A stretch of 64,000 bases of DNA from Acholeplasmataceae bacterium (GTDB lineage Bacteria; Bacillota_I; Bacilli_A; Acholeplasmatales; Acholeplasmataceae), in assembly GCA_036758425.1 (NCBI GenBank), contig DAIOWP010000001.1:513-64512 (forward strand). The letters are read 5' to 3'. The stretch's first letter is position 1. Each line of letters opens with the position of its first letter. Made by a program: the position numbers and the translations under genes. Shown here piece after piece: positions 34,046-56,056 of the stretch. The notes beneath the pieces were generated by a model. It was not told where the DNA came from. It worked only from the letters and a program-made list of their open reading frames with translations, and ran no database searches.

Positions 34046-34071
34046 AAAGGTCTGATATATGTATCAAACCT
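34046..34071 (-). terminator. Terminator-like hairpin, a near-copy of the tRNA-Ser(CGA) terminator (left boundary repeat of the cassette)
   Basis: Plus-strand text is AAAGGTCTGATA-ta-TGTATCAAACCT. On the minus strand the hairpin is followed by TTTATTATTT. It is 23/24 identical to 37279-37307 outside the loop. Confidence 0.6.
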
Positions 34072-34186
34072 TGGGTTTATCGATGTCTACGGTAAAAATT
34101 GATAATAAAATTTTAGTATCCCTCAATACTTGCTAAACAAAGGGGCAACTATCGAAAAGGTCTGTTATATTGACCTTATCAGTCAT

Positions 34187-34639
34187 TTAATCTCTATGAA
34201 TATATACTAATGAATCGCCAATATATTGGTTGACTTCTCTCCATTTAGCAGATTTAGCTCTTATCCAAGTTAACCAATCGGAATTTTGAGCAAACTCATC
34301 AATATCAACAATCTCATCAGCAACATAAATTCGATTATCTTTTTTCTTCATATGTAAATGAAAGATGACGGAATCGTAACCTTCTCTTGCAGGAACAAGA
34401 TTGAACCGTTCCACGCCTTCAAACACAATCTCTATCACCGAATGTTCTATATTTTGTCTTTGAATGATCATATGTACTTGACTTAAGTCGTCGAATGGCT
34501 TCATACTACAGTCTTCATTTACAAAAGATCCACTCGTATACTTAACCTCTTTAATACATGAATCATGAAAATGCCCAAAACGTGTTAAGACGTATTCGAT
34601 ATCTTTCTCATCATTAATAATGTTCCATTGACGATCCAT
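34187..34639 (-). CDS. Hypothetical cytoplasmic protein (150 aa), family unknown
   Basis: The ATG at 34639 is preceded by CAGGAGAA. It has its own extended -10 promoter and downstream hairpins. It has no TM helices and no motif I recognise. Confidence 0.6.
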   Translation of the reverse strand: MDRQWNIINDEKDIEYVLTRFGHFHDSCIKEVKYTSGSFVNEDCSMKPFDDLSQVHMIIQRQNIEHSVIEIVFEGVERFNLVPAREGYDSVIFHLHMKKKDNRIYVADEIVDIDEFAQNSDWLTWIRAKSAKWREVNQYIGDSLVYIHRD

Positions 34640-34707
34640 ATTGTTCTCCTGTTCTCTCATCAAATATTAAAATCACAATTTATCAAGAATCCTCGATTGT
34701 TTTTCAT

Positions 34708-34716: not shown

Positions 34717-34795
34717 TGTATGATCGATTGTTCTCATTACTTACTTAATTGCTAAACAAGGGTATAATGTAGCTATTTGTTCACATTTTAAGCGC

Positions 34796-34821
34796 AAAAA
34801 AAGACTTGATAGTGATATCAA
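34796..34821 (-). terminator. Rho-independent terminator of the ATPase/TM-protein operon
   Basis: The minus strand reads CTTGATA-TCAC-TATCAAG (perfect 7-bp stem), then a T-rich tail (TCTTTTTTT). Confidence 0.65.
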
Positions 34822-34865
34822 GCCTATTCTAGTCAGATGTGTGATGCTACCTATTTTGATACAAA

Positions 34866-34913
34866 TTAGCACCCCATGAATTTTTTTAGCACCATTAACA
34901 GATTTTTAGCACC
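34866..34913 (+). repeat. Three TTAGCACC boxes spaced exactly 20 bp apart
   Basis: TTAGCACC starts at 34866, 34886 and 34906, each preceded by a T-run. They lie between the TM-gene stop (34962) and its terminator. Confidence 0.8.
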
Positions 34914-34961
34914 CCTTAATGTATCAATATTATTGACTAATATCGTGCTATTTTCCCATAT

Positions 34962-35561
34962 TTATTGTTTTGGAACTTGAATCTCATCGACCAGCATATA
35001 TACATCATCTATGATATCAAAGTAAAGATGTATTTCATATGTAAGATCATGATTTATTATTTTTACTATGAGTTCATTTCCGTTGTATTCACTTTCTATT
35101 TGATCAATTATCGATGGATAAATCATTGAGTTCAATTCAGCAATTGGATTAAGAAATACATCTGATTTAATTTCGTAGACATCATAATAATAGTCCATCA
35201 TACTTTGAGTTCTAACTAAAACAATATTAGATCCTTCTACTTCATATGCTTTACTTGCAAAACCAAAACCAATACCTAAAAATAGCAATAGTGCAAGACC
35301 AATACCAACAATGCCAGTGATTAAACTTATAACAAATTTTATGAGTGGCTTTATATTATAGTTCAAAAGAATTATACCGATTGTAATTAAATACAAGGCT
35401 ATGATTGGGTAAATGAACCAATCCATCGAAAATACATAAGTAAATAAATAGACAAACTCTATCTGTTTTAATATAACTAAAACAAAAAACATATAAAGTA
35501 AAAATATGAAACTCGCTGCAATCATAATAATACTATTCCGATTTAATATACTACCTTTCAT
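34962..35561 (-). CDS. Hypothetical membrane protein with four predicted TM helices and a ~95-aa soluble C-terminal domain
   Basis: 199 aa. The ATG at 35561 is preceded by AAGGGGGAATGGGGA. It starts 50 nt downstream of the ATPase gene. Confidence 0.65.
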   Translation of the reverse strand: MKGSILNRNSIIMIAASFIFLLYMFFVLVILKQIEFVYLFTYVFSMDWFIYPIIALYLITIGIILLNYNIKPLIKFVISLITGIVGIGLALLLFLGIGFGFASKAYEVEGSNIVLVRTQSMMDYYYDVYEIKSDVFLNPIAELNSMIYPSIIDQIESEYNGNELIVKIINHDLTYEIHLYFDIIDDVYMLVDEIQVPKQ

Positions 35562-35611
35562 TATTTCCCCATTCCCCCTTAATTTTTTTGGTTAAATTTT
35601 TATGCAATACA

Positions 35612-36958
35612 CTACAAAAACATCGTCATATAGACCGGCAAATAAATAACATCATCTTTTTGAGTCAAATCTTTTGTATGAATGATGTATTTTTTACCAA
35701 GTTTGTCTATGAACTTGTTACTAAACTTGTCCATTGATGACGTTGTATAGTTTTTACCCGACTTAACTTCAACTGGCGATATTTTAGTTGGTTTAGATTG
35801 ATCTATAATTAGAAAATCTATTTCCATCGTATTTGACCTGTCTTGATTATCTGCTCTTGAGTAAAAATATAGTTTCTTATTTAAGGCAGTAAACATTTGT
35901 GCAACGATATTTTCAAATATCATGCCGTTGTTAACTTCAAGGCGATCTTGAATAATGGCTTTTGCTACTTCTTGATGCATGTCATCATTTTCACTGAATG
36001 CTTGGCTTAAGAGTAACCCAGTGTCTGCCATATACATTTTAAGTGTCAACCTGTCACGATTTAAAGATAATCCAAAATTAGGATCTGATGCATTAAAGCA
36101 TACATTTGTAATCATCGCTTCATCCAACCATGTAAAAGCATCCTCATAATCTCTAAATCTCGCATCTTTCGATAATGAACTTAACATAAACTTCTTTTCG
36201 TGTTTTGATAATTGACTAGGAATCTCATCAAAAATACTGAGTACTTTATGTTCATATCCTTTAGCATATTTTGAAATGTCATTCTTATATAATTTTAGGA
36301 TGTCTCTTTTAATTCGGTCAACTTTTGTATAATCATTAGTATTTAAGAATTCTATAACTGCTTGAGGCATACCACCAATTAACAAGTACTGTCTAAATAG
36401 TTTCATAATCGTTGAATGAATTTCAGCTAGAGGTTTTAAAGATTCAAAATGCTTTTTTATAAGAGGAATAACATCACCTCTACCAAGCGCTATACAAAAT
36501 TCTTCGAAATCAAGGGGATACATTTTGATTGCTCTTTCTTCTGAAGGTATTAATATGCTTTCAACATTACGTTTGATGGATAATAAAGAACCTGTCTCGA
36601 TATAATCATAACGATTGTCATTCACTAGATGTTTTATCAGTTGTCTTGCTTGAGGAAAAAGTTGCACTTCATCAAATACAATAAGTGACTGTCTTTCATA
36701 AAGTGTCGTCCCAGTGATTGATGTTAGGAAAAAGAAAAAATCATCTAAATTCGATGCGTATCTTTTGAAAAGCGATTTAATTTCATCACTAGCAATACTA
36801 AAATCAATCAGTATGTATGATTTGTATTCTTTTTTTGCGAAAGCTTCAACCACTGTGCTTTTTCCAACACGTCTTGCACCTTCGATGAGTAAAGCAGTTT
36901 TACCATTTTCATTTTTCCAGGAAAGCAGTTGCTTATATATTTTACGCTCTAACTTCAT
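35612..36958 (-). CDS. AAA+ ATPase of the COG1373 type (AAA_14 plus DUF4143-like architecture) with a PD-(D/E)xK-like C-terminal motif
   Basis: Walker A is GARRVGKST and Walker B is LIVFDEVQ. The C-terminus reads EIDFLIID...SPVEVKSG (D...ExK). The ATG at 36958 is preceded by AGAGGTGA. Confidence 0.8.
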   Translation of the reverse strand: MKLERKIYKQLLSWKNENGKTALLIEGARRVGKSTVVEAFAKKEYKSYILIDFSIASDEIKSLFKRYASNLDDFFFFLTSITGTTLYERQSLIVFDEVQLFPQARQLIKHLVNDNRYDYIETGSLLSIKRNVESILIPSEERAIKMYPLDFEEFCIALGRGDVIPLIKKHFESLKPLAEIHSTIMKLFRQYLLIGGMPQAVIEFLNTNDYTKVDRIKRDILKLYKNDISKYAKGYEHKVLSIFDEIPSQLSKHEKKFMLSSLSKDARFRDYEDAFTWLDEAMITNVCFNASDPNFGLSLNRDRLTLKMYMADTGLLLSQAFSENDDMHQEVAKAIIQDRLEVNNGMIFENIVAQMFTALNKKLYFYSRADNQDRSNTMEIDFLIIDQSKPTKISPVEVKSGKNYTTSSMDKFSNKFIDKLGKKYIIHTKDLTQKDDVIYLPVYMTMFL

Positions 36959-36985
36959 CAGGATCACCTCTTACAACTCTATTAT

Positions 36986-37035
36986 ACACGTTTTTTGATT
37001 TTTAAAACAATATATTTAACACGTTTTTTGATTTT
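36986..37035 (+). repeat. Perfect 17-bp direct repeat ACACGTTTTTTGATTTT (two copies, 33 bp apart) over the ATPase promoter
   Basis: Copies lie at 36986-37002 and 37019-37035. On the minus strand the proximal copy ends in CGTGTATAAT, so it contributes the -10 hexamer. Confidence 0.85.
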
Positions 37036-37120
37036 ATAATGTTTTCTTATATCACTTTATTGAAAATTTACTTGTAGGTATCAATATATCTACTTCGAGT
37101 TAGCTACTCTCAACATTATA

Positions 37121-37225
37121 TAATCGTGTCAATTGTTAGGTAATCGTGTAAATGATTGAATTATCGTGTGAAGTGGTAGTTAGTCATTTATAATATAGAA
37201 GTATATTTACTTGATTTCACGATTA
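37121..37225 (+). repeat. Three TWATCGTGT boxes at exact 20-bp phasing plus one inverted copy
   Basis: TAATCGTGT starts at 37121 and 37141 and TTATCGTGT at 37161. The inverse CACGATTA lies at 37218-37225. Confidence 0.8.
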
Positions 37226-37278: not shown

Positions 37279-37307
37279 AAAGGCCTGATACGAATTGTAT
37301 CAAACCT
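37279..37307 (-). terminator. Rho-independent terminator of tRNA-Ser(CGA) (right boundary repeat of the cassette)
   Basis: The minus strand reads AGGTTTGATAC-aattc-GTATCAGGCCT followed by T6, 13 nt after the tRNA CCA end. Confidence 0.7.
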
Positions 37308-37319
37308 ATGCATTCAATA

Positions 37320-37411
37320 TGGCGGAAGAGATGGGATTCGAACCCACGTGCCCTTTTTGAGGGCAACTGCATTTCGAGGGCAGCTCGTTACAACCACTTC
37401 GATACTCTTCC
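37320..37411 (-). tRNA. tRNA-Ser (anticodon CGA)
   Basis: 92 nt with encoded CCA. The acceptor stem is GGAAGAG/CTCTTCC, the variable arm is long (GTTGCCCTCAAAAAGGGCAC) and the T-arm is GTGGGTTCGAATCCCAT. The anticodon loop is CTCGAAA, with one C-U mismatch closing the stem. Confidence 0.85.
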
Positions 37412-45079: not shown

Positions 45080-47698
45080 TTATTCTTCATCGAAAAGTGA
45101 ATCGGTTGTGACTTTTTCTTCGGTTTCTTCCTCAACTTCATCAGGTGCTAAATCGATGGCTTCAATGACTTTTTTAGGTTCAGAAACCACCAGGGATTCC
45201 TGAATAAATGCTTGCTCTTCAACGATGTCTTCATCGATTTCTTCTTGGCGTGGAACCAGTGCAATCGTTGAGACTTTATGGTCGGGACGTAAGCGAATAA
45301 TTCTCACACCTTGTGTTGCGCGTTTGGTCTGTGAAATCTGATCCACATGGGTTCTCATCACAACACCTTTATCGGAAACGACAATTAAATCTTGATCATC
45401 ATTCACGGTACGAAGCGTTGAAAGTCTACCGTTCTTTTGAGTGACATTCAGTGTCTTCACACCTTTACCACCACGAATTTGCTTACGATATTCTTCAACG
45501 ATTGTTCGCTTACCAAAGCCATTTTCCGTAATGACAAGAATTTCTTGTTGATCGTGATCGATAATGGCAACACCGACAACTTCATCGTTAGGACCTAAAT
45601 CCATTCCGCGAACACCCGATGTTGTGCGACCCATCGCACGTGCATCATTTTCATCAAAACGAATCGCTTTACCGTTGGATGCTCCAAGGATAATTTCTTT
45701 CTTACCATCGGTTAATGCAACGTTCAAAAGTTCATCGTCTTCACGTAAATTAATCGCGTTAATACCGTTGGTTCTGATGTTTGCATACTCGTTAATTGGA
45801 GTACGTTTGATGACACCTTTTTTCGTCACGAACGTTAAGAATGCATCTCCTGCTTCAAAGTCTTTCACGTTGGTAAAGGATGCAAGTTTCTCATCTTTTT
45901 GGAACTCTAACAAGTTGACAATCGGTAATCCCTTTGACTGTCTTGATCCTTCTGGAATCTTATATCCTTTGATCTTATAGACGCGACCTTTATTGGTAAA
46001 GAAGAGATGATAGTCATGGGTTGATGTCATCAAGATATGTTCAACATAATCGTCTTCATGAACTTTGATACCAGACATACCTACACCACCACGATTTTGT
46101 GTCTTGTAGTGGTCGACATTCATACGCTTGATATACCCGTTATTAGTCACAGTAATAATCACATCTTCAACAGGGATCAATGATTCATCTTCAATGCTTA
46201 AATCTTCATGTAAATTGATTTCTGTAACACGTGCATCTGCATAATTAACTTTGATTTCAAGGAGCTCTTGACGGATGATTTGAAGCTTACGTTCATGGCT
46301 TTCAATGATGCCTTTATAATCTTTAATCTTGATGGTTAATTCGCCAAGTTCGTTTTCAATCTTTTCAATTTCTAAACCTGTCAATCGTTGAAGTCTCATA
46401 TCCAGAATCGCACGTGCTTGGATGTCTGTTAATTGATAGGTTGCAACCAGCGCATCTTTCGCTTCATCACCGGTCTTCGATGCTTTAATGAGTTCAATCG
46501 CGTGATCGACATCATGAAGTGCTGTGACCAGACCTTCTAAGATATGTTGTCTTGCTTCTGCTTTTTCGAGATCATACACAGTGCGACGTTGAATCACTTC
46601 AATCTGATGATCCAAATAGTGCTTGAGTAAATCTCTTAAGGTCACCATTTGAGGTTGACCCTTCACCAAACAAATCATGTTAAATCCAAAGGATTGTTGG
46701 AGTTGGGTATGCTTGTAGAGGTTATTGAGCATCACATGAGGATTGACATCGCGTTTAAGTTCAATGACAATACGCATGCCCTTACGATTCGATTCATCGC
46801 GTAAATCCGTGATGCCTTCAACGATTTTTTCTTTTGCAATGTCTGCAATGCGTTCAATCAATGTTGTCTTATTGACTGCATAAGGAATCGCAGTGACAAT
46901 AATCGCTTGTTTATTCTTATGAGTGACGATTTCAGCAGTTGCACGATTTGCAATAATACCTCTACCTGTCTCATACGCCATTCTTAAACCCGATAAACCG
47001 AGGATTTGACCTCCAGTAGGAAAGTCAGGTCCCTTGATATATTGCATGAGTTCTAAGACGCTAATTTGATCGTTATCCATGTATGCAAGCAACCCATCGA
47101 TCACTTCACCTAAATTGTGTGGTGGGATATTGGTTGCCATCCCTACAGCAATCCCTGTTGACCCATTGACGAGTAAATTAGGATAGCGTGAAGGTAGTAC
47201 CGATGGCTCATGTTCTGATCCATCATAGTTGTCGACATAATCGACCGTATTCTTTTCTAAATCACGGACGAGTTCACCTGCAATTTTTGACATTCTAGCT
47301 TCGGTGTAACGCATCGCTGCGGCACCATCGCCATCGACGGATCCGAAGTTCCCGTGTCCATCGATTAATGGCATACGATAGTTGAAGGGTTGTGCCATAC
47401 GAACCATGGCATCATAGACGGATGAGTCACCATGGGGATGGTATTTACCGATGACTTCACCGACGATTCTCGCTGATTTCTTATGGGCTTTATCTGCGGT
47501 CATACCTAAATCGTTCATCGCATATAAAATACGACGTTGAACGGGTTTAAGTCCATCGCGAATATCAGGAAGTGCACGTGATACAATAACACTCATCGCA
47601 TAGTTTAAGAAGGAGGTCTTCATCTCATTCGAGATATTGATCTCTTTCACATAACCTTCAGTTGTTTTGCTGGTTTCGTTATTTAATGTTTGGTTCAT
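45080..47698 (-). CDS. gyrA: DNA gyrase subunit A
   Basis: 872 aa with [10 protein letters not shown], the active-site AAAMRYTE, beta-pinwheel CTD repeats and an acidic tail. Confidence 0.97.
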
Positions 47699-47710
47699 GT
47701 GACATCCTTC

Positions 47711-50616
<2,906 letters not shown>

Positions 50617-50639
<23 letters not shown>

Positions 50640-50844
50640 TGACGATCACATACTCTTTATGTTCAACCATGATACGATCACCTGGATATAATTTTTTACC
50701 ACGTTCTGTTCTTTTTTCTTGGTTGACCAAAACATCGTTTTCTAATAAAAAAAACTTGGCTTCCCCACCTGAACCAATGTGATCAGTCGCTTTCAATAAT
50801 TGTCCTAATGTGATGTATTCGGTTGTAATTCTAAACTTTTTCAT
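50617..50844 (-). CDS. yaaA: S4-domain RNA-binding protein YaaA
   Basis: 75 aa lying between dnaN and recF, as in Bacillus. It shows an S4-like pattern (ITLGQLLK...VLVNQEKRTERGKKLYPGD). Confidence 0.85.
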
Positions 50845-50993
50845 TCATTTCCCTCTGCTATCCTTTTATATTATATCATAATATAAGCAAAAATACATCC
50901 TTTTTCTACTTTTTTATACACATTCAATCCTGACTGCGTCTCAGTTTCTAAAATGCGCTTAAAACGGAAATTTCAACGTTTTTTGAAATCGAT

Positions 50994-51018
50994 AAAAAAA
51001 GAGCCACCGAAGTAGCTC
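50994..51018 (-). terminator. Rho-independent terminator after dnaN
   Basis: The minus strand reads GAGCTAC-TTCG-GTGGCTC followed by T7. Confidence 0.75.
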
Positions 51019-51039
51019 TCATTGAAATTATGTCTATGT

Positions 51040-52170
51040 TTAGTCGATACGAACAGGTAAAATCAGGTGTAACAGATCAGCATCTAAGTTTCCTTTAATG
51101 ACAAAAGGTTTGACTTCCCCAGCAAATTGAACAAGGATTTCAGATGAACTAAATGATTTCAAAGCTTCAACTAAATAACGAGAAGAGAATGCAATCTTAA
51201 TCACTGGACCTGTCACATCAGATGAAGGAATGATTTCTTCTAGAGCATCCCCAACTTCATTGTTGGTTGAACTGATTTCAACAACACGGTCAGGTCTTAA
51301 ACTCATCTTGATGATGTTATAATTGGTTTCACGATCTCTTGGTGATAAGAGTGATACACGTTCAACAGCAGCAAGTAATTCTTCTTTGTTAAAAGGGATA
51401 ACCACAGGGAATTCAATAGGAATGATTCTCATGGTATCAGGATAGGTTCCTTCAAGCAAACGTGTTTGGAATAAAATCTTATTCATCTTAAATAAGACTT
51501 TATTGGGATTAATGAAAAGTTCAACATCTTCATTGTAGGTATCTAAGATCTTAGAAAGTTCATCCAAACTCTTATTTGGAATGACGATATCAAATTGCTT
51601 GCTATGTGTTCTAAGTTTCACATTTTTTTGTGATAATCGATAAGAGTCTGTTGCTACACAGTAAAGATGATTATCTAAATACTTAAAGTTAACACCGGTT
51701 AAGATAGGACGTTTTTCTGAAGTTGCTGTTGCATAATTGGTTTCTTTAATGATGCCTCGAATTAATTGACTGTCTAATACGATAGGATCATCTAAATCAA
51801 GGAAATCAATTTCAGGATAATCTTCAACATCCATCAAACGTAATTTGAATTCTGAACGGTCAGCTTTAATGACAATCAGTTTATCTTCAATCAATGCGAA
51901 TTCAACGCGTTGAGAAACAATCTTTCGAATGATTTCAATGAGATACTTCCCAGGTATAGCAACTTTACCACCTTGCTTAATAGAAAGTGAATGATCATCG
52001 ATGAGCACTTGGATCGCAACATCGGTATTGCTTGTTGTCAGTAAAATATGATCTTCATTGACTTCAAACTTGACGGCATAAAGAATGGGAAGAGGCGTCT
52101 TAGAAGGAAGACCTTTTTGGACGATAAGTAGTTGGTTGAGTAATACGTCACGATCGACACTAAAAATCAT
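51040..52170 (-). CDS. dnaN: DNA polymerase III beta sliding clamp
   Basis: 376 aa, directly downstream of dnaA, with a three-domain clamp pattern. Confidence 0.95.
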   Translation of the reverse strand: MIFSVDRDVLLNQLLIVQKGLPSKTPLPILYAVKFEVNEDHILLTTSNTDVAIQVLIDDHSLSIKQGGKVAIPGKYLIEIIRKIVSQRVEFALIEDKLIVIKADRSEFKLRLMDVEDYPEIDFLDLDDPIVLDSQLIRGIIKETNYATATSEKRPILTGVNFKYLDNHLYCVATDSYRLSQKNVKLRTHSKQFDIVIPNKSLDELSKILDTYNEDVELFINPNKVLFKMNKILFQTRLLEGTYPDTMRIIPIEFPVVIPFNKEELLAAVERVSLLSPRDRETNYNIIKMSLRPDRVVEISSTNNEVGDALEEIIPSSDVTGPVIKIAFSSRYLVEALKSFSSSEILVQFAGEVKPFVIKGNLDADLLHLILPVRID

Positions 52171-52231
52171 ATGCGTGCTCCTTTATTTTCTTATTTCAAT
52201 CTTTTAATTATTGTTGTTACAAATGTGGGTT

Positions 52232-52287
52232 TGTGGATAAATCGATTGATGGCTCTATATCGTATTTATTATACCACATTTTCCACA
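52232..52287. promoter_or_regulatory. DnaA boxes in the dnaA-dnaN spacer (oriC part II, with an adjacent AT-rich candidate unwinding stretch)
   Basis: TGTGGATAA at 52232-52240 is the perfect consensus complement and TTTTCCACA lies at 52279-52287. An AT-rich run spans 52180-52222. Confidence 0.7.
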
Positions 52288-52299
52288 TATTATAAACGC

Positions 52300-53664
52300 T
52301 TATTTTTTGTTAAATGCGTCAATCTTTTTTGTAATCGTATCGACAGCGATGCGTAATGCTGTATCTTGTTTTAAATCATTTTCAATCTTTTCACATGCAG
52401 CTAAGACGGTTGAATGGTCGCGATCACCAAAGAGAGAACCTATTGTTTTATAGGGAATATTGTAACGAAGTTTGATCAGATACATCGCGATATGACGCGG
52501 TAAAATGTATTTTGAATGTCTTTTCTTTCCAATTAAATCTTCTAATGTGATGCCATAGAAATCACTCACAATTGATTGAATGCGATCATAATTGTTTTCG
52601 TTTAAAGAATCGCTCTTGCGTTTGGTCTTAAGGAGCGGTTCTAAAGCCTCATTCACTGTTTCAATCGTCATGTCAAGATTATTGGTTAAACAATAGAACA
52701 AGACACGTTTGAGGGCTCCTTCAAGCTCACGGATGTTTGTAACAAACGATGATGCGATGAATTCTAAGACATTTCCTGGAATATCATGGATGTCAGACGA
52801 TTCAGATGCAAGTTTTCGTTTTAAAATCTCAATACGATGTTCGAGATCTGGGACTTGAATATCGACAGTTAATCCTACTTCAAAACGTGAAGTCAAACGT
52901 GTCATGATATTTTTAAGCTCAGATGCAGGTTTATCACTGGTGATCACAATTTGCTTATTGGCTTGATAGAGATAGTCGAATAATTTGAAGAATTCCATCT
53001 GCGTCTTTGTCGCACCACCCATGATTTGGATATCGTCGACAAGCAAAATATCAATTTCTCGGTACTTCGCATTGAAATCTTCCATTTTTTCTTTTTTTAA
53101 TAGATTCGCGAAATCTTCGATAAAGCCATCTGCTTTCACATAAAGAACTTTCTTATTGATGTCTTGATCTAAAATGTAGTTACCAATCGCTTGCATTAAG
53201 TGCGTTTTACCTAGTCCTACATCACCAAAGATGTAAAGAGGGTTAGCAACAGCACCAGGTTGGTCAGCAACTTTCATCGCCATACGGAAGGCAAACATAT
53301 TGGATTTACCCACAACAAAGTTGTCAAACGTATAAGTTGCATTCAAGTTACCTGGACGGTATTTTAAACTTAGATTGCGTTCAGGACTCACCAAGGTTTC
53401 TTCGGGGATCAGTTCTTGAGCGGTCACAAATTTAAAACGGATCGGTGCTTGGTTGTATTTTTGAGCAAGCGCATTGATTTTACCGAGATAAAGACGGTTA
53501 ATGCGATTTTTAATAAATTCACTTGGGACTAAAACATAAACGTGATCGTTTGCGTACTTATGGGTAGACTTCAAAGGTTCAAAGACTTCCTGAAAAATGT
53601 CTTCGCTAAATGTCGTCTCAAGTTCATTCAAAATGCGCTGCCACAGCAGGTCGTAAGTGTTCAT
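52300..53664 (-). CDS. dnaA: Chromosomal replication initiator DnaA
   Basis: 454 aa with the AAA+ motif GDVGLGKTHL, LLVDDIQ and the domain IV motif GDRDHSTV. Confidence 0.97.
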   Translation of the reverse strand: MNTYDLLWQRILNELETTFSEDIFQEVFEPLKSTHKYANDHVYVLVPSEFIKNRINRLYLGKINALAQKYNQAPIRFKFVTAQELIPEETLVSPERNLSLKYRPGNLNATYTFDNFVVGKSNMFAFRMAMKVADQPGAVANPLYIFGDVGLGKTHLMQAIGNYILDQDINKKVLYVKADGFIEDFANLLKKEKMEDFNAKYREIDILLVDDIQIMGGATKTQMEFFKLFDYLYQANKQIVITSDKPASELKNIMTRLTSRFEVGLTVDIQVPDLEHRIEILKRKLASESSDIHDIPGNVLEFIASSFVTNIRELEGALKRVLFYCLTNNLDMTIETVNEALEPLLKTKRKSDSLNENNYDRIQSIVSDFYGITLEDLIGKKRHSKYILPRHIAMYLIKLRYNIPYKTIGSLFGDRDHSTVLAACEKIENDLKQDTALRIAVDTITKKIDAFNKK

Positions 53665-53728
53665 ATAAAAACCCCTTATTTCATCGTATCAATAGGATAT
53701 CATACTTACAAAAAAACGAGCGAAAAAG

Positions 53729-53882
53729 ATATCCACAGTTTTTGTGGAAAACCAAAGAAGGAAGTGTGTGGACAAGTGGAAATCATGTGGAAAACTCGCC
53801 ATATCTTACGTCTTTATTAAGCCATCAGTCGATTTTGCCCAGTTATCCACAAACCCACAAAAAAGTGGTTAAGTTATCCACA
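53729..53882. promoter_or_regulatory. Cluster of at least six DnaA boxes upstream of dnaA (oriC part I)
   Basis: ATATCCACA at 53729, TGTGGAAAA at 53743, TGTGGACAA at 53767, TGTGGAAAA at 53786, and TTATCCACA at 53843 and 53874. Confidence 0.85.
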
Positions 53883-53995
53883 TCATAAGATCAAATCAGA
53901 TGATGGAAAAACGATGAAAAAACAAACAATTTTCTTACTTCTCAAAAAACTAGGAAGACACATCTTCAAAAGCATAAAAAAAGCATCGTTTATGG

Positions 53996-54024
53996 TTGAC
54001 AAACCAGGGGTCTTTATATATAAT
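53996..54024 (+). promoter_or_regulatory. Consensus sigma-A promoter of rpmH
   Basis: TTGACA (53996-54001), a 17-nt spacer, then TATAAT (54019-54024). Confidence 0.7.
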
Positions 54025-54061
54025 GAAAAGGCATGGTTTCGCAAGAAAGGTGGTTTTATTT

Positions 54062-54196
54062 GTGAAAAGAACATATCAACCAAGTAAGCTAAAACGCGTT
54101 AAGACCCATGGCTTTAGAGCGAGAATGGCTACTGCTAATGGTCGTCAAGTGTTAGCTCGTCGCAGATTGAAAGGCCGCGCAGCATTAACTGTTTAA
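54062..54196 (+). CDS. rpmH: 50S ribosomal protein L34
   Basis: A GTG start at 54062 follows AAAGGTGG. The product is the 44-aa [44 protein letters not shown] (initiator Met). Confidence 0.95.
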
Positions 54197-54297
54197 ATTG
54201 AATCTTTATTTTAAAAATACTTGGATTACTCGTTTAAAATAATAACACACGTTATTTTTTTGGGTAATCCTTTCTTTTTTAAAATACTTGAAAACCG

Positions 54298-54663
54298 ATG
54301 AACAAGAGATATCGCATAAAGAAGAATAGCGAAATCGATGCGATCTTTAAACAGAAGGTTGTCAAAGGTGACAGTTATTTTGCTATTTATCAGGCTGACG
54401 ATCCAACAAGCGATCACTTTCGTTTTGCACTATCGATTGGTAAACGCTATGGTCATGCTGTATCGCGTAACCTCGCTAAACGTCGCATACGAATGATTAT
54501 CAGTGAGTTCAAAGACAACATTAAAAAACAAAAAGAAATTGTTGTTGTCATCAAACCCACGGTCTCTCAGTTGAGTTATCAGGACATGAAAACCAAATTA
54601 ACCGTTCTATTTAAAAAATCTAAACTCATGGAGAACGAAAACAATGAAACGAATCATCTTTAG
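54298..54663 (+). CDS. rnpA: Ribonuclease P protein component
   Basis: 121 aa, basic, with the RNR-like motif VSRNLAKRRIR. It is in the rpmH-rnpA-yidC order. Confidence 0.92.
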   Translation: MNKRYRIKKNSEIDAIFKQKVVKGDSYFAIYQADDPTSDHFRFALSIGKRYGHAVSRNLAKRRIRMIISEFKDNIKKQKEIVVVIKPTVSQLSYQDMKTKLTVLFKKSKLMENENNETNHL

Positions 54664-56056
54664 TTTGATGATGGTGGTATTAGTCTTCAGTTTAGCTGCC
54701 TGTGGTGGTGGAGCAGACCCTGTTGAAGTTGTGGTCTCTAACAACCCAGTTGGTGAAACAGGTGTATGGGAAAAACTCGTTTTTGATCATACCGAAGCTA
54801 ACAGCATCGTCTTTAAAGGGGAAAATGGACTATCTTATTGGAGTCTATCCCAAAAAGGTGTCGGTACACTCGTCGAATATGATGGTGCTCTTCCGACTAA
54901 TGTACAAACAAACGCTGATGGTGTGAGAACCTATACCTACACCGTCTCAGATATTGAAACGTCCTTTCAGTTATATGTAAAGCCTGAAACGATTGTTGGT
55001 GATCCCGATGATATCGTGATGGTCGCCTTCCGTTATGTAAAGGACAACGTCCTTTATCAAATTGGTGAAACCTTTGATCCAACCGGTATGCTCATCTATG
55101 TGGTGAGAAGAGATGGTGATGTCACTGAACTTAAGGGTGAAGATGTCAAAGCTTCATTTGATGATCATGACTACTCTCCACTCGATGAAGATGGATTCAA
55201 AAATCAACATCAATATAACGTGACGTTCACGTATGAAGATTTCAGTCAAGACATCAATGTTTATGTATCAGGTGGTGAACGCCCCATCTCAAACAAGGAT
55301 GCAACCTTCTTTGACTGGATCTTAGTCATTCCTGTTGCATTTATCATGAATTTCTTTGCAGGATTATTTGGAAACAACTTTGCTGTCGGTATTTTACTCA
55401 CCACGATCGTGGTTCGTACACTTGCTTGGCCGATTTATGCGAAGAGCAACGACATGTCCATCAAGATGAACCTTGCACAACCCGATATGGCACGCGTCCA
55501 ATCCAAATATGCAACCAGAAAAGACCCACAATCACAACAGATGATGCAAATGGAAATGATGCAGGTTTACAAAAAGCACGGCATCAACGTCTTTGGATGT
55601 CTTATGCCTTTCCTTCAAATGCCTATCTTCATCGCGATGTATGGTGTCGTTAGACGTATTACGCTTGCCGGTGGTATGTATACAGAAGGTGTCATCAATA
55701 CCAACTTCTTAGGTATCAATCTAGCAAACGGTAACGATGGTATTATCGGTATGGTACTTGCAGGTTTAGTTGGTGGAACGATGTTCTTGTTACAACAGAT
55801 TTCAATGAAGAAACCCGCGTACGCGAAGAATACGGGTCGTCAAAACTTAAATCCACAAGCTCAACAAACCGAAAAGACAATGAAATATGTCAGCTACTTC
55901 ATGGTCATCATGATGGCATTCGCTTCATATTCATCAAATGCGCTTGCACTTTACTGGATTTTCGGTAACATCTACTCCTTAGGTCAAACACTCGTGAATC
56001 GTAAGCTGAACGAAAAGAAACACGAAACATTAAGACAAAAACAAATATTGGGGTGA
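54644..56056 (+). CDS. yidC: Membrane protein insertase YidC/SpoIIIJ-type lipoprotein with an extra ~200-aa N-terminal extracellular domain
   Basis: The lipobox is FSLAAC. The YidC core spans residues ~240-470 (WPIYAKS..., GCLPFLQMPIF, LALYWIFGNIYSLGQ). It overlaps rnpA by 20 nt. Confidence 0.88.
   Translation: MKRIIFSLMMVVLVFSLAACGGGADPVEVVVSNNPVGETGVWEKLVFDHTEANSIVFKGENGLSYWSLSQKGVGTLVEYDGALPTNVQTNADGVRTYTYTVSDIETSFQLYVKPETIVGDPDDIVMVAFRYVKDNVLYQIGETFDPTGMLIYVVRRDGDVTELKGEDVKASFDDHDYSPLDEDGFKNQHQYNVTFTYEDFSQDINVYVSGGERPISNKDATFFDWILVIPVAFIMNFFAGLFGNNFAVGILLTTIVVRTLAWPIYAKSNDMSIKMNLAQPDMARVQSKYATRKDPQSQQMMQMEMMQVYKKHGINVFGCLMPFLQMPIFIAMYGVVRRITLAGGMYTEGVINTNFLGINLANGNDGIIGMVLAGLVGGTMFLLQQISMKKPAYAKNTGRQNLNPQAQQTEKTMKYVSYFMVIMMAFASYSSNALALYWIFGNIYSLGQTLVNRKLNEKKHETLRQKQILG

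Follow-up and report, generated by a model that had tools for sequence, protein, structure and literature searches.

The 64,000-nucleotide (nt) stretch of DNA analysed here, hereafter the window, comes from an Acholeplasmataceae bacterium (contig DAIOWP010000001.1 of assembly GCA_036758425.1, positions 513 to 64,512), and the locus in question consists of two neighbouring genes on its minus strand. The first, at 35612..36958, encodes a 448-amino-acid (aa) AAA+ ATPase with a predicted PD-(D/E)xK nuclease domain; the second, at 34962..35561, encodes a 199-aa membrane protein, a clade-restricted ORFan. A previous sequence-only reading had proposed an undescribed two-gene defence module at this site. 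The two open reading frames (ORFs) were found exactly where that reading had placed them. The locus, however, is a single-gene unit of the family PDC-S01 followed by a lineage-specific passenger, and not a new two-gene system, since the ATPase family is already catalogued and the membrane gene is confined to this lineage. Both genes are real, because the ATPase has thousands of homologues and the membrane ORF is intact in 10 of 10 homologous clusters with a ratio of non-synonymous to synonymous substitution rates (dN/dS) below 1. The ATPase ORF spans 35612..36967 on the minus strand, in which the ATG at 36958 gives 448 aa; with a start at the GTG lying three codons further upstream, the protein would have 451 aa.

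The ATPase is almost certainly an ordinary member of the AAA_14-DUF4143 family (COG1373, PDC-S01). Both Pfam domains assigned to it in the sequence-only reading scored above the gathering cut-off: AAA_14 at residues 21-155 (84.5 bits, cut-off 27, 8e-24) and, C-terminal to it, DUF4143 at residues 226-401 (81.4 bits, cut-off 28.1, 8e-23). Among the PADLOC hidden Markov models (HMMs), the PDC-S01 model PDLC04792 was matched at 4e-117 over residues 3-448 of 448 and PDLC04786 at 1e-107; the protein scored solely on PDC-S01 models and not on PDC-S27. The family is large, with at least 8000 proteins at E <= 1e-10 in a word-indexed search and 8817 clusters of 50% identity at E <= 1e-3 in an exhaustive search. 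The motifs that had been quoted from the translation, GARRVGKST (Walker A), LIVFDEVQ (Walker B) and EIDFLIID...SPVEVKSG, are all present. Among 93 diverse members, the Walker residues are conserved as K33 in 92, D96 in 85 and E97 in 74, and the nuclease residues as E349 in 87, D381 in 87, E397 in 75 and K399 in 80. Two further motifs, GGMP (residues 196-198, codons at about 36365-36373 of the window) and DTG (residues 312-314, codons at about 36017-36025), were invariant in all 93 and exceed the Walker and nuclease residues in conservation.

An AlphaFold2 model of the ATPase (predicted local distance difference test score, pLDDT, 81; predicted template modelling score, pTM, 0.82) contains an AAA+ core, a helical lid, a winged-helix-like region and a C-terminal alpha-beta-beta-beta-alpha-beta unit. 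The layout so obtained comprises an ORC/Cdc6-like AAA+ domain at about residues 1-160, the lid and winged-helix region at about 160-330 and the PD-(D/E)xK domain at about 335-448. Within residues 345-427, helices were predicted at 345-358 and 407-415 and strands at 364-368, 378-385, 393-398 and 423-427. The nuclease-like tail suspected from the letters alone is therefore supported by the modelled topology together with the conserved E349, D381, E397 and K399, and the C-terminal domain is predicted to have the PD-(D/E)xK topology with its catalytic residues intact. Whole-chain Foldseek searches with the model gave Orc1/Cdc6, clamp loaders, RuvB, Avs, TnsC and MuB as the best matches in the PDB; these searches were dominated by the AAA+ part, and no domain-level structural match was obtained for the nuclease fold. 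Sequence searches of the PDB with the whole ATPase and with a profile of the C-terminal domain returned chance-level matches only.

The family had been regarded as lacking an assigned role, a view that is now outdated. DUF4143 was already placed in the PD-(D/E)XK list in 2012 (PMC3424549), and PDC-S01, a PADLOC candidate, has been described as an ATPase fused to PD-(D/E)xK that is the fourth commonest prokaryotic 'defence', was counted about 29,500 times in bacteria and 10,000 times in archaea, and has a patchy, multi-copy and horizontally transferred distribution (PMC12988326). It is one of 145 untested 'phage defence candidates', defined by embedding in BREX, DISARM or type I restriction-modification loci (bioRxiv 10.1101/2024.01.29.577857). 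Furthermore, the Thermus thermophilus homologue TT_P0211 was raised 6.6-fold when plasmid DNA was present (PMC4406477).

The membrane protein, by comparison, stands nearly alone. No match to it was found in Pfam, NCBIfam, PADLOC or PHROGs, and it belongs to no recognisable effector family; in a set of 5.8 billion proteins its homologues amount to no more than 10 clusters, each with an identity of 69% or higher. It had been read as a protein of four transmembrane helices with a soluble tail of about 95 aa. The membrane protein and its tail, which is acidic, were retained, but hydropathy gives three to four helices and not a firm four, and a single-sequence AlphaFold2 model was poor (pLDDT 62, below 50 in the C-terminal tail). 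The dN/dS of the membrane gene is 0.45-0.67 and that of the ATPase 0.04-0.07, so that the former is about 10 times less constrained. The spacer between the genes (35562..35611, minus strand) is exactly 50 nt long, as first counted, and carries a strong Shine-Dalgarno (SD) sequence, AAGGGGGAATGGGG, before the membrane gene. No terminator was predicted between the two genes in a terminator scan; the first one past the membrane gene is a hairpin at 34825-34802 followed by a T-run, essentially the single shared terminator previously located at 34796-34821. As the genes are 50 nt apart, the SD is strong and no terminator intervenes, co-expression of the two is very probable, and the membrane gene is probably a passenger co-transcribed from the ATPase promoter.

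Probable co-transcription in the window does not extend to association across genomes, and the pair is very likely not a conserved module. A scan of one genome per species gave 80 ATPase loci (comparison loci are denoted by L numbers), of which about 17 lie in metagenome-assembled genomes (MAGs) of the Izemoplasmatales/Acholeplasmataceae type with ATPases 93-98% identical. These close ATPases sit in at least eight contexts. By tblastn, the membrane gene was found beside the ATPase at five loci (the window, L001, L002, L007 and L027) and was absent from at least 12 loci whose ATPases are 93-97% identical. Downstream DNA was present for about 70 homologue loci, and in only six of them (L001, L002, L007, L027, L012 and L018) is the ATPase followed, on its own strand, by a protein with three to four helices by hydropathy. 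The separation was seen from the other side as well: L003-L006, which are four independent assemblies, have a membrane gene of 70% identity right behind a remnant of the ATPase promoter and lack the ATPase. Homologues thus lack a conserved membrane neighbour and the membrane gene also occurs without the ATPase, against the proposal of a two-gene defence module, and the ATPase itself is PDC-S01 and not an undescribed protein. Downstream neighbours vary in the 70 loci and in the closest clade, as belongs to PDC-S01 defined as a single gene. In function, the membrane protein and the ATPase are probably not partners.

The commonest close downstream neighbour is a 147-aa GNAT protein (Acetyltransf_3, 1.6e-7), whose gene starts 8-12 nt past the ATPase stop codon. 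It is present in L013 (1671-2114), L016, L017 and L022 (5324-5770) and truncated or decayed in L009, L010, L014 and L015. Elsewhere the ATPase is followed by a lipoprotein-like ORF (L008), a helix-turn-helix gene with a membrane-protein gene (L012) or a TM2-domain protein gene 212 nt away (L018). In blastn comparisons, the DNA common to the contexts starts 130-360 nt upstream of the ATG and stops at the ATPase stop codon or 26 nt beyond it; homology of the window to L010 and L011 extends to 35586. The first part of the spacer, about 26 nt at 35586-35611, aligns with the start of the GNAT gene, with ATG changed to ATA, and the SD of the membrane gene comes after it. The membrane gene therefore displaced a GNAT gene. 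Since the window, L001, L007 and L008 all retain about 26-27 nt of the GNAT start before a different gene begins, the replacement breakpoint recurs at one place.

The ATPase behaves as a self-contained single-gene unit, with its own promoter embedded in direct repeats of 33-nt period. Repeat finding and a motif map located three such repeats in the promoter region at 36980..37068 on the minus strand, AATAAAGTGATATAA, AAAAACGTGTTAAAT and AAAAACGTGTATAAT, with cores at 37056, 37023 and 36990; two of the copies, at 36980-37002 and 37013-37035, were recovered as repeat family D3 with a spacing of 33. The last repeat holds the -10 element TATAAT at 36981-36986 (CGTGTATAAT), 23 nt before the ATPase ATG, and an SD, GAGGTG, follows at 36965-36970. 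Further upstream, at 37121..37171 on the minus strand, sequence inspection and the motif map showed that (T)TACACGAT(T)A occurs three times at 20-nt intervals. The three copies contain ACACG, at 37171, 37151 and 37131, an inverted form of CGTGT, which is the core found in the promoter repeats. Copies of TACACGAT are kept upstream of the ATPase in L001, L007, L009, L010, L012-L015 and L022.

The array is not peculiar to this clade. In distant homologues from many phyla (L008-L086), three to five direct repeats were found upstream in every lineage, the last overlapping the -10 element. The array was quantified on 72 unique upstream regions of 200 nt, a chain being defined as at least three approximate 12-mers at a constant period with a tolerance of +/-1. 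Chains were detected in 47 homologue upstream regions, and 46 of these chains fitted a period of 31-33 nt (copy spacing 32-34 nt). In the controls, 314 upstream regions from the same loci gave 21 chains with periods scattered over 18-58 nt, only two of them within 31-33, and shuffled sequences gave one chain in 72. The repeat sequence itself changes with the clade, as in AAACTGCGTATACACCAAAG, AATCGCGAAAAGGTG, ATGTGTATATTA and TTTATCTTGCGTTTTAT, and paralogues that are 31-34% identical carry the array too. The repeat array is thus a family-wide architectural feature, and its sequence follows the protein lineage. Because the repeats covary with the only gene always linked to them, they are putative operators that would be bound by the winged helix of the ATPase. 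No description of the upstream array was found in the literature searched.

Both genes lie in an AT-rich islet that begins directly downstream of a tRNA gene, as had been noticed from the letters. The gene, tRNA-Ser(CGA) at 37320..37411 on the minus strand, was called by ARAGORN and by Rfam (tRNA, 48.9 bits), and an Rfam scan of 33.5-37.6 kb returned the tRNA only. The GC content is 0.28-0.32 at 34-37 kb and about 0.38 elsewhere in the window. A terminator scan found the hairpin GGTTTGATAC...GTATCAGGCC with a T-run at 37281..37307 (minus strand) and a second copy, GGTTTGATAC...TATCAGACC, at 34049..34070 (minus strand), at the distal end of the islet. The GGTTTGATAC...TATCAGRCC hairpin has only these two copies in 64 kb, and they stand as direct repeats at both ends of the 3.2-kb islet (about 37281-34071). 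Apart from this hairpin repeat (D16) and the promoter repeat D3, repeat finding in the islet yielded mostly noise. Two near-identical metagenome contigs, L093 and L094, lack 34156-34063, a deletion between related hairpin repeats (34156-34170). The third gene of the islet, at 34187..34663 on the minus strand, encodes a clade-restricted hypothetical protein of 150-158 aa and has its own promoter-like site and hairpin; the protein has no family, its 20 clusters are all hypothetical and found only in this clade, and the gene is missing from the syntenic strain L001.

The window and L001 are 98-99.5% identical in dusB but only 84-96% identical over the stretch that starts at the tRNA hairpin and takes in both genes; identity is regained past 34094, where homology to L001 resumes. 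This drop within the islet marks it as exchanged accessory DNA. In the same comparison, the number of synonymous substitutions per synonymous site (dS) was 0.33 for the ATPase and 0.12 for the adjoining membrane gene, a difference suggestive of gene conversion within the islet or of alleles brought in from outside. The chromosomal replication origin lies about 17 kb from the islet; its region, at 45080-56056, is marked by gyrA, gyrB, recF, dnaN and dnaA (52300-53664, minus strand), followed by the plus-strand genes rnpA and yidC, and the minimum of the cumulative GC skew lies at about 50-51 kb.

A neighbourhood of accessory and defence-type genes is a feature of the relatives and not of the window, whose flanks are the housekeeping genes dusB, hslO, galE, a NUDIX gene, hflX and cdaA. 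Past the ATPase or membrane gene, the relatives carry a Schlafen/AlbA_2 gene and IS66 (L002), IS110 (L089), a MazE-type toxin-antitoxin (TA) pair (L014), two Fic/PDC-S04/SoFic genes (L022), PDC-S27 with a RelE TA pair (L020) and a second PDC-S01 (L019). In L087 (861-8091) the membrane gene is followed by a ParE/RHH TA pair, a GNAT fragment, a large serine recombinase gene, a phage capsid gene and DUF3987, a gene set that resembles a satellite-like integrated element at the same hot spot. In six contexts (the window, L001, L009, L012, L015 and L026) the ATPase unit follows a tRNA gene in the same orientation at a distance of 360-460 nt; five different tRNA genes are involved (Ser-CGA, Ser-GGA, Leu-CAG, Leu-TAG and Ala-GGC), and no integrase was seen near these six units. 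A tRNA-targeting integrative island was considered and found unsupported, as none of the three islet genes encodes a recombinase and the repeats at the islet ends are copies of a terminator hairpin, not of a tRNA 3' end. A metagenome scan for an empty site with the neighbouring NUDIX protein gave three near-identical loci and no empty site. Homologues are scarce in plasmid and phage collections (60 plasmid records and 14 short metagenomic phage records), and an origin on mobile genetic elements was for this reason left unsupported.

A second repeated feature lies at the 3' end of the ATPase and membrane-gene transcription unit. This intergenic element, at 34791..34929 on the minus strand, contains three GGTGCTAA repeats 20 nt apart, the core GGGTGCTAATTTGTATCAAAATAGGTAGCATCACACAT and the terminator hairpin at 34802-34825. 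The window holds seven matches to GGTGCTAA against 0.76 expected. Elsewhere, nhmmer found 27 further matches to the element, all co-oriented with genes, at L002, L003-L007, L009, L013-L017, L022, L027 and L087-L090; a copy is also present in L092 (5470-5650). The element measures about 110-150 nt and consists of three to four GGTGCTAA repeats 20-21 nt apart, a near-invariant core GGGTGCTAATTTGTATYAAAATAGGTAG...ACACAT and a terminator hairpin. Such elements bracket variable 'cassettes', namely the ATPase with its downstream gene, TA pairs and the Schlafen-like gene. The element is not in Rfam. An integron-like attC site was rejected, with no integrase seen and the element made of direct GGTGCTAA repeats and a conserved core; a structured RNA was rejected as well, since no compensatory changes were seen in the sole candidate stem. 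The leading (minus) strand carries six of the seven GGTGCTAA octamers, and this bias might point to a Chi-like role.

The explanation that probably holds for the locus as a whole is a self-contained PDC-S01 ATPase-nuclease unit with its own promoter and a passenger ORFan. In the mechanism proposed, the ATPase would bind its own upstream repeats through the winged helix and repress its own transcription, while its ATP-dependent assembly on DNA would license the PD-(D/E)xK nuclease. Autoregulation through the 33-nt-period repeats is rated at about an even chance on the strength of the array. The putative role most likely to be served by the ATPase would be restriction of invading DNA, with indirect support in the plasmid-dependent rise of TT_P0211 (PMC4406477); a defence role as such is tentative, at a little less than even chances. 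The membrane ORFan would have replaced the GNAT gene behind the ATPase and would be co-transcribed cargo.

Several observations weigh against this explanation. The case for PDC-S01 in defence is guilt by embedding only (bioRxiv 10.1101/2024.01.29.577857), and the one representative assayed in E. coli B did not protect the cells from T4, T5 or T7 (bioRxiv 10.1101/2024.09.26.614923). The flanks of the ATPase in the window are housekeeping genes and not a defence island, and a cross-species dN/dS of about 0.05 denotes unusually strict selection on it if it is a gene in an arms race. The repeats could belong to another factor or could be tandem promoters. As to the passenger, the two genes are, as judged from their layout, very probably expressed together from one operon, and five loci retain the pair, with identities of 84-99%; retention and co-expression are together compatible with a lineage-specific functional link.

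Three other explanations were weighed against the self-contained PDC-S01 unit. The one that survives best, although unlikely, holds that the ATPase has no part in defence and is a conserved cellular factor for DNA transactions or regulation, such as a sequence-specific regulator or a repair or recombination protein, embedded by chance in the defence loci of some genomes. The strict selection on the ATPase (dN/dS 0.04-0.07) and its 93-98% amino-acid identity across about 17 species-level MAGs would fit such a factor, as would the housekeeping flanks and the negative outcome of the only published phage test; the lineage-specific, operator-like array likewise implies sequence-specific DNA binding. 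A conserved cellular factor would not, however, be expected to show the patchy, multi-copy and horizontally transferred distribution of the family (PMC12988326), the TA, Fic/SoFic, PDC-S27 and Schlafen-like neighbours of the relatives or the 6.6-fold induction of TT_P0211 with plasmid DNA (PMC4406477), and the conserved nuclease catalytic residues also speak for a different role.

A selfish or mobile cassette is unlikely too. On this view a cassette without an integrase would move from one terminator hairpin or GGTGCTAA element to another, often beside tRNA genes, with the ATPase-nuclease as the enzyme for its mobility or maintenance and the GNAT, the membrane protein and others as cargo. The DNA shared between contexts is indeed a discrete block from the upstream repeats to the stop codon, found in at least eight contexts, six of them 360-460 nt after five different tRNA genes and co-oriented with them, and co-oriented GGTGCTAA elements or hairpins bracket the units. 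The islet is far more diverged between the two strains than the core flanks, one MAG holds two copies (L010 and L012), and the replacement breakpoints recur about 27 nt past the stop codon (the window and L008). On the other hand, terminal inverted repeats, target-site duplications and empty sites were looked for and none was found, and the dS of 0.3-0.7 between copies indicates old divergence instead of recent transposition. The contexts come from different species, so that lost synteny may explain part of their variety, and homologous recombination at repeated hairpins can account for the shuffling, a deletion between such repeats being present in L093 and L094; furthermore, the family is rare on plasmids and phages. 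A stronger form of the idea, in which the ATPase-nuclease would drive a cassette system that has no integrase, either instead of acting in defence or in addition to it, is improbable. Such an engine would bind its own 33-nt-period iteron array and, with the GGTGCTAA and hairpin elements, promote capture and exchange of downstream cargo beside tRNA genes; the cargo may then be the membrane ORFan in the window and, at other loci, GNAT, TA and Schlafen-like genes. If true, this would give the fourth commonest prokaryotic 'defence candidate' a concrete and unexpected mechanism.

A nascent two-gene system, in which the ATPase-nuclease of this Izemoplasmatales sublineage recruited the membrane protein as a second, membrane-acting effector with the logic of abortive infection, is very improbable in spite of the tight operon (50-nt spacer, strong SD, single terminator), the retention of the pair in the window, L001, L002, L007 and L027 at 84-99% identity and the exchangeable accessory islet whose relatives neighbour TA, Schlafen-like, insertion-sequence and satellite-like genes, for the ATPase already has an intact effector domain of its own, near-identical ATPases have other neighbours or none, the membrane gene is intact without the ATPase in four independent assemblies, is about 10 times less constrained and encodes a protein outside all PADLOC, Pfam and PHROG effector families, and the remnant of the displaced GNAT gene in the spacer makes the juxtaposition secondary.

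Comparison with known systems leads to the same family. With PDC-S01 (AAA_14 plus DUF4143; COG1373) the ATPase shares a full-length HMM match, the same ATPase and PD-(D/E)xK architecture and the single-gene state without a conserved partner; the protein itself is no different, and only the clade-specific membrane ORFan, probably co-transcribed downstream, sets the locus apart. PDC-S27 (ATPase_2 'archaeal ATPase' plus PD-(D/E)xK) is a sister fusion of a P-loop ATPase and PD-(D/E)xK (PMC12988326), one copy of which adjoins the homologue in L020, but its ATPase belongs to another Pfam family and the protein of the window scores only on PDC-S01 models. Among the STAND/Avs sensors an NTPase is likewise coupled to a PD-(D/E)xK-type nuclease, and Avs3, Avs4 and Avs5 were among the Foldseek matches; the protein of the window, in contrast, lacks a C-terminal sensor repeat domain, has 448 aa only, has an AAA+ instead of a STAND core and carries its nuclease at the C-terminus. 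The best structural match was an Orc1/Cdc6 initiator (2v1u_A, E = 3.4e-5), in which an AAA+ domain, lid and winged helix are combined as here, although TM-scores were low (0.24-0.30), the protein of the window has an additional C-terminal nuclease, its repeats overlap its own promoter and nothing points to a replication role. Archaeal origins carry direct-repeat arrays (ORB elements) beside the Orc1/Cdc6 gene, comparable with the array upstream of the ATPase. In pairs of a sensor and a small membrane effector, such as lambda RexA/RexB and the membrane effectors of CBASS, Thoeris and retrons, a cytoplasmic NTPase or DNA-binding protein is followed in one operon by a small multi-pass membrane protein. 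The locus resembles these in operon layout only, as the co-occurrence is not conserved here and the membrane protein is in no known effector family.

PDC-S01 is among the most abundant candidate defence genes of bacteria and archaea, without a validated function or mechanism. The locus offers several handles on this family: the repeat array points to sequence-specific DNA binding and autoregulation, selection is strict despite changing neighbours, and the unit travels as a discrete block of promoter plus gene, often after tRNA genes. In conclusion, any of these handles, whether the array, the strict selection or the travelling block, could help account for the negative heterologous phage assays of PDC-S01.

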